The position numbers and the translations under genes were made by a program. A model generated the notes under the pieces. The model was not told where the DNA came from. It did no database searches and was given only the letters and a program-made list of their open reading frames with translations. From the sequence record PQ511148.1: 64,000 nucleotides of DNA, one strand, 5' to 3'. The stretch is from Escherichia phage NHEP10. This document shows positions 53,606 through 57,041 of this stretch, piece by piece; within the stretch, counting starts at the first letter, position 1; every line of letters begins with the position of its first letter.

Positions 53606-54100
53606 TCACAACTTATTAATATTTACTTTAATTCGCTTTCTTTTCTTGGAAGGAATTTGTTCTGGACCTTTATTTACGACTGCACCTGTAGTTGTTCCTG
53701 ATGCAATAGCTTGAGGACTACCGCCTGAATCACCAGCAACCATATCCTCAAATAAAGGGAGTTCTTTAAATATTTCTTTCTGTTGTTCTTCAGTAATGTT
53801 ATAGCGTGAAGCTACAGCACTCCAGGCAGACATCATTGAGGCCATTCCATTAAGACCTGGAACAGTGCTCATCATTCGCTTCATTGAACGAACTGAAGCA
53901 TGAAAAGGTGTATACGCTGCTTTCTCTTCGGGAGTAGAAGGACGTTTAAGAACACTTCCACGTTCATCGATGATTTTGGCTTCGTACGCTTTCCATTCGG
54001 TAAAAGGTTTTTGCATTAGTCGAATAAACTTATATGCATAAACAGAATCTATTGCAGTGTTAATAATACCCATAGGTACCTCCTGAGTATATTTAATCAA
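53606..54100 (-). CDS. hypothetical protein
   Basis: 164-aa ORF, 61-41 interval. Confidence 0.45.
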   Translation of the reverse strand: MIKYTQEVPMGIINTAIDSVYAYKFIRLMQKPFTEWKAYEAKIIDERGSVLKRPSTPEEKAAYTPFHASVRSMKRMMSTVPGLNGMASMMSAWSAVASRYNITEEQQKEIFKELPLFEDMVAGDSGGSPQAIASGTTTGAVVNKGPEQIPSKKRKRIKVNINKL

Positions 54101-54290
54101 TTACAAAGATCGCTTTGTCACCATTTATATCTGTGACTTCATATGTAGTGCCTTCATACTGTGGAATATTCCAAATTACACCATCATTAGCTTTTACGCT
54201 AATATGGCATTGGTGTTTTGAAACAACTTCATAATCTTCAAAACTTGTAAAAACACTAATTTTAGAACCAGTGCAAATTGCAGTAGTCAT
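54093..54290 (-). CDS. hypothetical protein
   Basis: 65-aa ORF. Confidence 0.4.
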   Translation of the reverse strand: MTTAICTGSKISVFTSFEDYEVVSKHQCHISVKANDGVIWNIPQYEGTTYEVTDINGDKAIFVID

Positions 54291-54291
54291 T

Positions 54292-54951
54292 TTAACCTCG
54301 ATTCATAAATGCATTAAATATTTGGTCATCGACAGAAATTTCTAATTCGACTTCAATTGCTTCAGCCTTTTCTTCAGGTGGTAATTCGTATCCACATACT
54401 ACAATTTTTTCATCGATATCAAAATATACAGAAGCAATACGATTAATGTTATTTTCGGTTAAGTCTAAATCAACATCAACATCTTTTTGACCTACACTTA
54501 AAGGATAACTAATACGGGTTATTTTATTATCTTTAACAAAGAGCCCACCAACATACTCTGTACTACGTTTGAAGTTTACACGTTTCCGAATTGAAAGATA
54601 TGATACATCTTTACCGTGAGCTCGGCTCATAGGACATAATGAATAGCTAGAATAAGAGATGTCAAATCCTACACCTTCAATATGAGCCAACGTATCATGA
54701 TTAAACCAATTATAATCATATGCCAAATCCATTATATTGTAATATGTGAAAGGCACAGGATTAACATCATATGTTGTACCTTTAAAATCTGCCCAGGCGA
54801 CGATTTCGTTATCTTTAACAATTACAAAAATTACACCAATATGATATCCGTTATTATTTTCGTTAGGCGTTATATTATAACATTGTGCATTAGGAAATTT
54901 ACCATATTTAAATGGCGCGTTTTTGTGCATGTAATAAATCATATTATTCAC
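54292..54951 (-). CDS. hypothetical protein
   Basis: 219-aa ORF. Confidence 0.45.
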   Translation of the reverse strand: MNNMIYYMHKNAPFKYGKFPNAQCYNITPNENNNGYHIGVIFVIVKDNEIVAWADFKGTTYDVNPVPFTYYNIMDLAYDYNWFNHDTLAHIEGVGFDISYSSYSLCPMSRAHGKDVSYLSIRKRVNFKRSTEYVGGLFVKDNKITRISYPLSVGQKDVDVDLDLTENNINRIASVYFDIDEKIVVCGYELPPEEKAEAIEVELEISVDDQIFNAFMNRG

Positions 54952-55237
54952 CTGTGATTTCGGTTACGATATCTTTGTTATCGAAATTAGGGTCACAATA
55001 CAAAACATAGTTGTACTGCATGATACCGCCAGACTTAAGTTGTTCAACAACTTTATTAACCATATTAGGACGATCTCGTTTAGTGATGTTCATGATATCA
55101 GAGAAGATTTGTTGTTCAACATCTTCTTGATTTGCAGTCATTGACCACTCACAGAGGTCTTTATCATAACCTGCCGTAACTGGAGCTGGTGCACATGATA
55201 CTGCAAGTAAGATTGCTGCCAATGATAACTTTTTCAT
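54944..55237 (-). CDS. sp: Spackle-like periplasmic protein (superinfection exclusion / lysozyme inhibitor)
   Basis: 97 aa (T4 Sp 97 aa); signal peptide MKKLSLAAILLAVSCAPAPVTA and GYDKDLCEWSM...MQYNYVLYCD resembling T4 Spackle. Confidence 0.65.
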   Translation of the reverse strand: MKKLSLAAILLAVSCAPAPVTAGYDKDLCEWSMTANQEDVEQQIFSDIMNITKRDRPNMVNKVVEQLKSGGIMQYNYVLYCDPNFDNKDIVTEITGE

Positions 55238-55300
55238 TTTAACTCCTTAGTTGATTTGATAGGACTACTATACTATAGTCCATCTATAATGTAAACAAGT

Positions 55301-55549
55301 TTATTCTTTTTCGCGAATAATAATTACTTGTTGAGGCTGCTGGGCAGATTTCTTTTCGGCAACGATAGACCAAATTAAAGTTCCAATCCAACCAACCATC
55401 GTCCAGTTAAAGAGTAAAGATACAAAGAAGATTGCTGTTGTGCTTTTTGTGCCACGAATAAGTGCGATTACCCAAGGCAACATGTAAATGATGATTGAAC
55501 CAATACCTGCGATTAAAACCGCTACTGAACTAGCTACGAATAATTCCAT
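55301..55549 (-). CDS. small inner-membrane protein (2 predicted TM helices)
   Basis: 82 aa; two long hydrophobic segments. Confidence 0.5.
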   Translation of the reverse strand: MELFVASSVAVLIAGIGSIIIYMLPWVIALIRGTKSTTAIFFVSLLFNWTMVGWIGTLIWSIVAEKKSAQQPQQVIIIREKE

Positions 55550-55610
55550 GTTAATTTCCTCTTGATTTGTTATGTTTATAATATCTTGTTTTAACTTTGG
55601 CGTAAACCAA

Positions 55611-55979
55611 TTAATTAAATTTGTTTAAACGTTCAATACACTGGACGTAGTTATTTGTGATTTGTTTCTGGGTAGGCTCTTTACCAGTTGTTTCAACATA
55701 GCGAATGAATGCGATTTCAGTAGCCTGTAGACAATGTTCTTTAACGCGTTGTTCTTTTGACAATGCTACAGTATCAGAGTCACGATAACGTTGAGCATGG
55801 GCATCAGCTTGAATCATTCGATTACCTACAGTAACCGGGTCTTCCACTTCAACTTTAGGTTGGTCATACTGTTTAACATTCGGATTGTAAATCAGTTGGC
55901 CGACGTTATTAGGGATAAAGCCATGGGCACCACATCCGGTTAATCCAAATACCATTGCTAAAGTGATTAATTTTTTCAT
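55611..55979 (-). CDS. lipoprotein
   Basis: 122 aa; signal peptide with lipobox (MKKLITLAMVFGLTGC). Confidence 0.55.
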   Translation of the reverse strand: MKKLITLAMVFGLTGCGAHGFIPNNVGQLIYNPNVKQYDQPKVEVEDPVTVGNRMIQADAHAQRYRDSDTVALSKEQRVKEHCLQATEIAFIRYVETTGKEPTQKQITNNYVQCIERLNKFN

Positions 55980-56050
55980 TTTAATTTCCTCTGTAGTTGA
56001 TAGAAAGATAGTAACACAGTATGTGGTGCTTGTAAACAGTTATTTTAAAA

Positions 56051-56239
56051 TTATCGAAAATCTGCTTCGAAAACTTTCTCGTCATTAACAAATGCTTTAA
56101 CTAATGCGTTGTTCACTTCAGCAAGTTGTACCGTAACCCACTCGATTTCTTCGCGATCACCTGATAACATGATATCTTTAGTGAACATCTCACCGCTTTT
56201 AAACCAACCGATAAAAGTAACTTTAGTTAATTTGCTCAT
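56051..56239 (-). CDS. dmd: Dmd-like protein (candidate antitoxin against RnlA/LsoA-type toxins)
   Basis: 62 aa from internal Met (T4 Dmd 60 aa); motif V.F.GWFK...MFTK.I resembles remembered T4 Dmd; unverified. Confidence 0.45.
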   Translation of the reverse strand: MSKLTKVTFIGWFKSGEMFTKDIMLSGDREEIEWVTVQLAEVNNALVKAFVNDEKVFEADFR

Positions 56240-56553
56240 ATTTCCTCGCAAAATGCCCATTCAGCGTGATAAACTGTAGCACCTTTAGTATTATTCATTT
56301 GAACTACGTCTACCGGAGAAATTACTCGATAGAGACGTGGTTCACCTCCATAAGAGCGTGCTGCTCGTCCTGCATAAATCTTTGCTAAACCGATATCTTC
56401 AGTAAAGAATACACGATCCAAGTTTTTCTTACGTCCAGTTTCAGACAGAACTCCTGTTTCCTCAGGAGGACAAAGCATGTTTTCGATGTTAGCTGAACTA
56501 CTTGAACCGTGATAAAAAATCTTAAATTCTGCTTTACAATCGATGGTTTTCAT
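56236..56553 (-). CDS. hypothetical protein with HGS motif
   Basis: 105 aa; FYHGSSS...FFTED...IYAG; fold unknown. Confidence 0.4.
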   Translation of the reverse strand: MKTIDCKAEFKIFYHGSSSSANIENMLCPPEETGVLSETGRKKNLDRVFFTEDIGLAKIYAGRAARSYGGEPRLYRVISPVDVVQMNNTKGATVYHAEWAFCEEI

Positions 56554-56608
56554 TTTGTTCTCCAGTAGTTGATAGGTCTATAATAACACAACTACTGGAG
56601 AAGTAAAC

Positions 56609-56983
56609 TTAAAAACGTAATTTAGATACATCTGCGTTGATTTCGCTTTGGTTTGCGTCGTATGCAATTAAACGAACCGCTTTAGATGGGTCATTCAACG
56701 CATAGAAATGATGGAACATTGCTCGAACGATATCACCATTTACGAGTTCTACCTGGATAGGAGAACCTTTTTCGAGTTGGAAATGTTCATAAGCTTTGAT
56801 GGTTCGTAGATAATCAAGTTTTTGATTTCCGGCTCCAACAATTTGTACGATACGTTTGCCCATGTTTTCCATACGAGATACAATAGTTTTAGGAGCAAGA
56901 ATAACGTAGGTTGCCAGCGGAGAAACTACTTCAACAGTTGTGTTTTCGGTGATTGCAGTAAAAATTGCTTGAGACATATTCAT
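56609..56983 (-). CDS. hypothetical protein
   Basis: about 124 aa from internal Met with AGGAAAA SD and early promoter; track ORF start 57022. Confidence 0.4.
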   Translation of the reverse strand: MNMSQAIFTAITENTTVEVVSPLATYVILAPKTIVSRMENMGKRIVQIVGAGNQKLDYLRTIKAYEHFQLEKGSPIQVELVNGDIVRAMFHHFYALNDPSKAVRLIAYDANQSEINADVSKLRF

Positions 56984-57011
56984 AGTGTTTTCCTCTTGGT
57001 TGGTGTAAGTA

Positions 57012-57041
57012 TATCGTATCATGCCTAGAGGAAGATGTAAA
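57012..57041 (-). promoter_or_regulatory. T4-type early promoter (GTTTAC-N18-TACGAT)
   Basis: plus strand atcgta...gtaaac directly downstream of the gene 41 hairpin. Confidence 0.45.

Follow-up and report, generated by a model that had tools for sequence, protein, structure and literature searches.

Which genes does a T-even phage keep between its primase and helicase genes, how are they transcribed, and does their grouping amount to an island of superinfection exclusion and anti-defence functions, as an earlier note on this DNA had suggested? The question is raised here by Escherichia phage NHEP10 (sequence record PQ511148.1), of which a stretch of 64,000 nucleotides, referred to below as the window, was analysed. 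Nine minus-strand open reading frames (ORFs) occupy positions 53606-57022 and are flanked by gene 61 (DNA primase, 52544-53566) and gene 41 (replicative helicase, 57072-58514). We consider it very probable that these genes make up the accessory region, transcribed early, that is standard in T-even phages of the RB69 type (Mosigvirus), with the exclusion, antitoxin, ORF H and gp61.1 roles proposed below. The cluster counts as already known because it corresponds to the ordinary, long-annotated RB69 arrangement, and in itself it adds no novelty. What the analysis does provide is confirmation that Spackle, Imm, Dmd and AdfA are grouped in the primase-helicase gap of RB69-type phages, together with the precise gene starts and the transcription units of NHEP10. 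Two testable leads within a genetically tractable model phage are ORF H, with about 600 carriers among the sequenced T4-like phages, and gp61.1; a novel mechanism of counter-defence or of assembly could come to light through either of them. Gene content, homology, promoters, gene coupling and fold are shown by the analysis, whereas every protein activity given below is inferred.

Gene content of the interval between genes 61 and 41

The 6.1-kilobase (kb) region compared shares 98.0-98.6% nucleotide identity with many Mosigvirus phages of E. coli, such as HX01, JN02 and ST0, and about 150 records span at least 80% of it. By sequence, the window is of the Mosigvirus RB69/HX01 type. The two flanking genes and the nine genes of the interval are listed here, with lengths in amino acids (aa) and with E values after the family names.

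52544-53566, minus strand: gene 61, DNA primase (flank), 340 aa; 100% identity to HX01 and 74% to T4 gp61
53606-54073, minus strand: ORF A, full-length gp61.1 family, 155 aa; phrog_2086, 1e-73; helical N-terminal part and conserved C-terminal motif
54093-54290, minus strand: ORF B (RB69ORF033c), 65 aa; phrog_3249, 3e-33; 100% identity to RB69ORF033c
54292-54942, minus strand: AdfA/gp61.2, anti-DarT factor A, 216 aa; Pfam PF23813 AdfA, 9e-120, full length
54944-55237, minus strand: Spackle (Sp), by homology a periplasmic inhibitor of the gp5 tail lysozyme; Pfam PF25676 T4_Spackle, 1e-42
55301-55549, minus strand: Imm, by homology a superinfection immunity protein of the inner membrane, 82 aa; Pfam PF14373 Imm_superinfect, 1.8e-15; phrog_1039
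55611-55979, minus strand: Imm.1 ortholog, predicted lipoprotein with lipobox LTGC, 122 aa; Pfam PF17578 DUF5481, 3.6e-9
56051-56239, minus strand: Dmd, by homology an antitoxin against RnlA/LsoA-type RNase toxins, 62 aa; Pfam PF17587, 4.5e-20
56236-56553, minus strand: ORF H (RB69ORF040c), minimal ADP-ribosyltransferase fold of the Arr clade, 105 aa; confident model
56609-56983, minus strand: ORF I (RB69ORF041c), Mosigvirus-restricted, 124 aa; phrog_10668, 4e-85
57072-58514, minus strand: gene 41, replicative helicase (flank), 480 aa; 85% identity to T4 gp41

The nine ORFs are genes and not chance ORFs, because a Shine-Dalgarno-like sequence, read directly, lies 5-10 nucleotides (nt) upstream of every one of them, all match PHROG families (E ≤ 4e-28), each is carried by between 134 and 1473 phage records, and all have annotated coding-sequence counterparts in HX01, NHEP29 and RB69. 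The earlier note had counted nine ORFs in the interval, which is thus borne out, and the coordinates that it gave for Spackle, an 82-aa membrane protein, a lipoprotein and Dmd were exact for all four. Its lengths of 65, 105 and about 124 aa stand as well; those of 164 and 219 aa proved too long. Ribosome-binding sites and homologs back revised starts that shorten ORF A from 164 to 155 aa (53606-54073) and AdfA from 219 to 216 aa (54292-54942), along with an ORF I of 124 instead of 137 aa (56609-56983).

Gene order and orientation in RB69 (NC_004928, RB69p031-p041, from 61.1 to RB69ORF041c) are those of the window, and the encoded proteins are 97.5-100% identical: 100% for ORF B, Imm and ORF H, 99% for AdfA and Sp, 98% for Dmd and ORF I, and 97.5% for Imm.1. 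The two phages differ at two genes. RB69 possesses 61.4 and carries 61.1 in two frameshifted pieces, whereas the window lacks 61.4 through a deletion of 206 base pairs (bp) and has an intact 61.1. The RB69 annotation (2318-2784 of the compared RB69 segment) gives these pieces as separate ORFs of 92 aa and 63 aa, which add up to the intact 155-aa gene of the window (53606-54073), and the split looks like a frameshift or a sequencing difference in the RB69 reference. The deletion was located by alignment of the window, HX01 and RB69.

56038-56050, no strand assigned: junction of the 206-bp deletion removing gene 61.4

Gene 61.4 lies between imm.1 and dmd in RB69 and HX01. It is cleanly deleted in the window, which alters the C-terminus of Dmd from DFRG to DFR. 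Other Mosigvirus records apparently carry the same deletion, since they match the window in a single piece. The RefSeq name 'DNA polymerase' given to the 70-aa gp61.4 was dismissed as an annotation artefact.

The corresponding interval of T4 contains 61.1 (54 aa), 61.2, sp, 61.4 and dmd, in agreement with the figure of about five genes in the earlier note. With the window it shares 61.2/AdfA (66% identity), sp (66%) and dmd (55%); 61.1 is represented in T4 by its C-terminal part alone, where the shared motif lies, and residues 102-149 of ORF A are 69% identical to T4 gp61.1. Of the two T4 regions compared (61-41 and 42-43), the 61-41 interval is without equivalents of ORFs B, H and I. The growth over T4 therefore consists of a relocated imm-imm.1 pair, ORFs B, H and I, and a full-length 155-aa 61.1. 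The cluster is indeed expanded, with nine genes against five, but the expansion reflects largely the relocated imm-imm.1 pair and not new genes.

Predicted exclusion and anti-toxin genes and their transcription

Homology to Spackle, Imm, Dmd and AdfA supports the view of the interval as a superinfection-exclusion and anti-defence cluster. The Spackle-like periplasmic protein that had been proposed is confirmed by its Pfam match (145 bits against a cut-off of 27, covering residues 1-96 of 96), by 66% identity to T4 Sp and by PDB entry 6x6o (E=1.4e-39). In the latter alignment both cysteines (within DLCEW and VLYCD) are identical to those of T4 Sp, and the hydropathy profile reveals an N-terminal hydrophobic segment (residues 4-24) that fits an export signal. 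Spackle blocks the gp5 tail lysozyme of a superinfecting phage (PMC7677548). By analogy, the NHEP10 protein would be exported and, once in the periplasm, block this lysozyme when a T-even phage superinfects.

The protein with two membrane spans could be identified as Imm. It scores 56.9 bits with Pfam against a cut-off of 27.9, aligns over its full length with T4 Imm (64% identity) and displays two hydrophobic spans by hydropathy, at about residues 1-34 and 40-59. Located in the inner membrane, it would be expected from its homologs to block DNA entry by superinfecting T-even phages. The adjacent lipoprotein turned out to be Imm.1, with a DUF5481 score of 37.4 bits (cut-off 27) and 32% identity to T4 Imm.1 (E=2e-18). 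Its lipobox, LTGC in the window and LAGC in T4, follows from the sequence as had been claimed, together with a hydrophobic N-terminal segment (residues 4-22). The RefSeq name 'iduronate sulfatase' for Imm.1 was dismissed as an annotation artefact. Names judged spurious in RefSeq concern the HX01 segment at 3612-3980 and 4041-4253 and the T4 segment at 1237-1614, each in the numbering of the segment itself.

The assignment of Dmd relies on a Pfam score of 72.2 bits (cut-off 27) and on structures of the protein: PDB 5hy3_B, which is T4 Dmd, is matched with an E value of 4.6e-17, and 61 of the 62 residues are identical in PDB 5i8j. The earlier note had named a failure to align with T4 Dmd as the observation that would count against its Dmd-like ORF; at 55% identity the two proteins do align. 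By analogy with T4 Dmd, the protein is predicted to bind and inhibit RNase toxins of the RnlA/LsoA class.

Five ORFs had been left as candidates for further anti-defence factors. This proved right for the one given as 219 aa, which is the published anti-DarT factor AdfA. It scores 398 bits with Pfam against a cut-off of 27, residues 4-219 of the 219-aa form aligning with profile positions 1-211, and is 99% identical to RB69 gp61.2 and 66% to that of T4. A sequence search of the PDB with AdfA returned nothing significant. AdfA was found in RB69 as an anti-DarT factor; a histidine at position 164 permits binding and neutralisation of E. coli DarT1, R164H gains function, and wild-type RB69 (AdfA Arg164) is blocked by DarTG1 (PMC11257639). 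The corresponding residue of the window protein (168 of 216) is Arg, as in wild-type RB69, and the DarT1-neutralising histidine was not found at this position. By analogy, AdfA would bind a DarT DNA ADP-ribosyltransferase toxin. Since Arg164 is the allele reported not to neutralise the E. coli DarT1 tested, the protein is probably aimed at another DarT or inactive on DarT1. The allele predicts that NHEP10 would be sensitive to DarTG1, like RB69, unless it has a working adfN (AdfN = gp30.3).

Early transcription of the region was approached with a strict pattern for T4-type early promoters (GTTTAC-N17-19-TANNAT), scanned across the whole window. The pattern occurs 18 times where 0.94 sites are expected, and 17 of the 18 sites lie on the minus strand, providing a ready-made map of the early transcription units of the 64 kb. 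A generic sigma-70 scan gave no enrichment over shuffles (28 vs 22.4), and the coding strand of the interval is free of matches to strict MotA-box and late-promoter patterns. Within the interval, five promoters of the T4 early type (GTTTAC-N17-TAnnAT class) were found for the nine genes, four of them strict-pattern sites and one a TATAGT variant, all in intergenic gaps.

57013-57042, minus strand: early promoter GTTTACA-N17-TACGAT, serving ORF I and enclosing the ATG (57022) of the 137-aa form
56580-56608, minus strand: early promoter GTTTACT-N16-TATTAT, serving the H-dmd pair
56008-56037, minus strand: early promoter GTTTACA-N17-TACTAT, serving imm.1
55578-55607, minus strand: early promoter GTTTACG-N17-TATTAT, serving imm
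55267-55295, minus strand: early promoter TTTACA-N17-TATAGT, serving the Sp-AdfA-B-61.1 unit

Dmd, AdfA, the 65-aa ORF and gp61.1 are without a promoter of their own, each of their genes abutting or overlapping the one upstream. The stop of ORF H and the ATG of dmd are joined in an ATGA overlap, and AdfA, ORF B and 61.1 follow their preceding genes at gaps of 1 to 19 nt. The five predicted promoters would thus define the units I, H-dmd, imm.1, imm and sp-adfA-B-61.1. The statement in the earlier note that each ORF has its own early promoter is wrong, because five promoters serve nine genes and the remainder are packed behind upstream genes.

ORF H and gp61.1

The structure model of ORF H is confident, and its top fold matches are ADP-ribosyltransferase (ART) folds, which places the protein in this fold. 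Phage records with the gene number 609, and their hosts include Escherichia, Klebsiella, Acinetobacter, Aeromonas and Vibrio; a few depositors have labelled homologs 'putative ADP-ribosyl transferase'. Between the window and Acinetobacter phage Stupor, ORF H is 69% identical, compared with 58% for the gp41 helicase and 54% for the gp61 primase; a protein more conserved than the helicase argues for strong constraint. In the literature, no functional study of RB69ORF040c, RB69ORF041c or gp61.1 was found.

A profile search among 1.8 billion representative proteins recovered 220 relatives of ORF H. Many of these are domains within proteins of 500-3900 aa (E values of 1e-20 to 1e-27) that also carry ART-PolyVal, NUDIX, GNAT, Toprim, ddrB-ParB or tape-measure domains, or a portal together with a 2H/Acb1-like domain; the portal fusion is located in a phage head-gene module. 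For short solo homologs, the contigs obtained as gene context are under 1 kb. Such multidomain architectures are those of polyvalent effector proteins delivered with the invading DNA (Iyer et al. 2017, PMC5512222). ART domains of polyvalent proteins are embedded in large proteins, whereas ORF H is the free-standing product of an early gene with no virion-borne fusion, and its family is distinct from Pfam ART-PolyVal itself.

Several homologs found with the ORF H profile exceed the Pfam threshold for Arr-ms (PF12120; 26.9-29.4 bits, cut-off 25). A widened profile of 58 sequences matches only Arr structures in the PDB (E=7.7e-4). This alignment pairs H15 of ORF H with Arr His19, F49 with Tyr49, and E38-x-G-R41 with E40-x-G-R43. 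The H15-G16 pair is invariant across the 58 diverse sequences of the family, and F49 is conserved in at least 90% of them. These positions answer to the strand-1 histidine and the strand-2 aromatic with which ARTs of the H-Y-[E/D] clade bind NAD+. ORF H itself remains below the Pfam gathering threshold for Arr (no match at E ≤ 0.1), and it is shorter than Arr (PDB 2hw2, 9iaf), at 105 against 143 aa, with Phe in place of the Tyr aromatic. It is best placed beside Arr, in a sister group, and not within Arr proper. We predict, for the first time, that ORF H is a small Arr-clade ADP-ribosyltransferase using NAD+, which would be co-produced with Dmd and would act early, its target being a conserved one of the host or a nucleic acid.

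The second lead concerns ORF A. Full-length gp61.1 is found in 588 phage records from many host genera, and a homolog adjoins the primase gene in Acinetobacter phage Stupor too. The AF2 model is mediocre (pLDDT 64), with the conserved C-terminal motif predicted to be disordered, and a Foldseek comparison of this model with the PDB returned only noise (E>2). The family profile matches residues 49-102 of T4 gp23 (PDB 6uzc, E=1.3e-6) and also residues 3-37 of mature gp23*. The gp23-like stretch of ORF A extends over residues 95-147 approximately. It spans the maturation site, aligning FLTE/AEIGGDHGYNATNIAAGQTSGAVTQIGP of gp23 with PLFE/DMVAGDSGGSPQAIASGTTTGAVVNKGP of ORF A, where the slash marks the cut. 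In the wider motif, LFE/DMVAGDSGG..IASGTTTGAVVNKGP of gp61.1 aligns with LTE/AEIGGDHGY..IAAGQTSGAVTQIGP of gp23. From the lengths of full-length (521 residues) and mature (456) chains, the cut in gp23 was placed after Glu65, and L-F-E/D of ORF A, paired with L-T-E65/A66, conforms to the (L/I)-x-E cleavage motif. The N-terminus of the 54-aa T4 gp61.1 (MKTFKEFIKE) has 7 of 10 residues in common with MKTYQEFIAE, the capsid targeting sequence of internal proteins; the 155-aa protein of the window starts with MGIINTAIDS, which does not resemble this sequence.

T4 gp23 has a capsid-shell (HK97-like) domain that gp61.1 lacks. Because it resembles gp23 around the maturation site and along the N-arm, gp61.1 may be a substrate of the prohead protease, and the sequence likeness suggests such a substrate or a decoy for the N-terminus of the capsid protein. 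The label 'major capsid protein' that strays onto some 61.1 homologs was dismissed as an artefact, although the gp23-like motif gives it a real basis and accounts for its appearance.

Competing explanations and minor features

Several observations weigh against the reading of the interval as a standard accessory region with the roles proposed above. The T4 copies of imm and imm.1 are found outside the 61-41 interval, between genes 42 and 43. The 41-61 gap of Acinetobacter phage Stupor (1619-6557 of the compared segment) contains 13 genes, including one for a 317-aa putative nucleotidyltransferase, and shares with the window only the ART gene and 61.1; in Klebsiella Slopekvirus the ART gene is located elsewhere. 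The co-location may reflect a permissive insertion site and not a functional island. No Dmd-like gene stands beside the ORF H homolog in the Klebsiella and Acinetobacter phages checked, and the H-dmd coupling is lineage-specific. AdfA of the window carries the allele reported inactive on DarT1, a weak allele. ORF H has no match in Pfam (E ≤ 0.1), NCBIfam or PADLOC, nor in the PDB when searched by sequence or by a close-family profile. The aromatic at the NAD+ position is Phe and not Tyr, and no acidic residue is conserved family-wide among the 58 sequences; E103 is invariant in the T4-like subfamily only and lost in the wider family. The profile alignment with Arr stops at Arr residue 81, and the region equivalent to Asp84 falls outside it; the C-terminal part of Arr contains this catalytic residue. 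With no family-wide acidic residue, a transferase chemistry for ORF H is no more than plausible, and the protein could instead bind or hydrolyse NAD.

The grouping of these genes could be devoid of functional meaning if the 61-41 gap were a plastic, insertion-tolerant spot that gathers, shifts and loses small early genes. The presence or absence of 61.4 among near-identical phages points in this direction, as do the 61.1 gene, frameshifted in RB69 and intact in the window, the different position of imm and imm.1 in T4, and the 13-gene interval of Stupor together with the displaced ART gene of Slopekvirus. Yet for at least four of the nine products the family has a published role in exclusion or against toxins, and sp-adfA-B-61.1 and H-dmd form tightly packed units with one promoter each. 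We hold such a plastic spot to be a serious possibility, although not the probable one; it addresses the co-location and not the roles of the genes, and is compatible with the standard accessory region that we favour. A further and rather doubtful possibility is that the interval encodes two uncharacterised effectors. ORF H would then be an active Arr-clade ADP-ribosyltransferase disabling a conserved host defence or function through a non-protein or unusual acceptor, and gp61.1 would mimic the gp23 maturation site and N-arm, being processed by the prohead protease and either packaged or used as a decoy. The acceptor of ORF H could also be a protein of host defence, transcription or translation, as for AcrF11 or T4 Alt, ModA and ModB; this seems equally doubtful, because the closest relatives by sequence profile (Arr) and by fold (Tpt1) both use non-protein acceptors and because no catalytic Glu is present across the family. 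An RNA end processor of the Tpt1/KptA kind, working with Dmd against RNase toxins by 2'-phosphate removal or by ADP-ribose capping of RNA or DNA ends, is decidedly improbable. Only 75 of 179 Tpt1 residues align with ORF H, no Tpt1 match was obtained by sequence profile, and the linkage to Dmd is lacking beyond Mosigvirus. Most of the catalytic Arg-His-Arg-Arg tetrad of Tpt1 lies in the other, RNA-binding lobe, and membership of this family was rejected, a single small domain of 105 aa leaving no room for a second lobe. Least probable of all, and very much so, is a true Arr-type enzyme inactivating a small molecule, rifamycin-like or another metabolite with antiphage or antibacterial action. 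Arr is the sole PDB family reached by sequence profile, relatives of ORF H surpass the Pfam Arr-ms threshold, and ARTs of the Arr family have been reported from other phages (PMC9503650). The profile alignment nevertheless ends ahead of the catalytic Asp84, and a conservation above that of the helicase in Escherichia, Acinetobacter and Aeromonas phages suggests a universal cellular target, not an environmental antibiotic.

ORFs B and I complete the gene set. ORF B occurs in 262 phage records, mostly from Escherichia, Shigella and Salmonella phages, and has no match in Pfam, NCBIfam or PADLOC. ORF I, essentially restricted to Mosigvirus, occurs in 134 phage records, 132 of them at 95% identity or more, and forms only two clusters among 5.8 billion proteins, which is why no useful alignment or model could be obtained. 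Nothing meaningful was found for ORF I in Pfam, NCBIfam and PADLOC, its best PDB sequence match was not significant (E=0.084), and the same three collections returned nothing meaningful for ORF A. NCBIfam matches of ORFs A, B, H and I at E>0.003, far under the cut-offs, were disregarded.

Two hairpins were recognised at the borders of the interval by reading the sequence.

57050-57065, minus strand: hairpin GGAGAC-UUCG-GUCUCC with a tetraloop, directly 3' of the gene 41 stop
53580-53599, minus strand: hairpin GGCCTTA-TTAATT-TAAGGCC with a 7-bp stem and a 6-nt loop

The tetraloop hairpin is situated 8 nt ahead of the next early promoter and may act in termination or in RNA stability; having no T-run, it escaped the terminator scan. 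The other one sits between the gp61.1 stop and the ribosome-binding site of gene 61, with a possible effect on the translation of this gene or on processing of the mRNA. Beyond this border, a 65-aa hydrophobic ORF on the plus strand (52350-52547) lies between genes 56 and 61 and overlaps the end of gene 61. It corresponds to ORF029w in the RB69 annotation and is unusual as the lone plus-strand gene within a minus-strand block.

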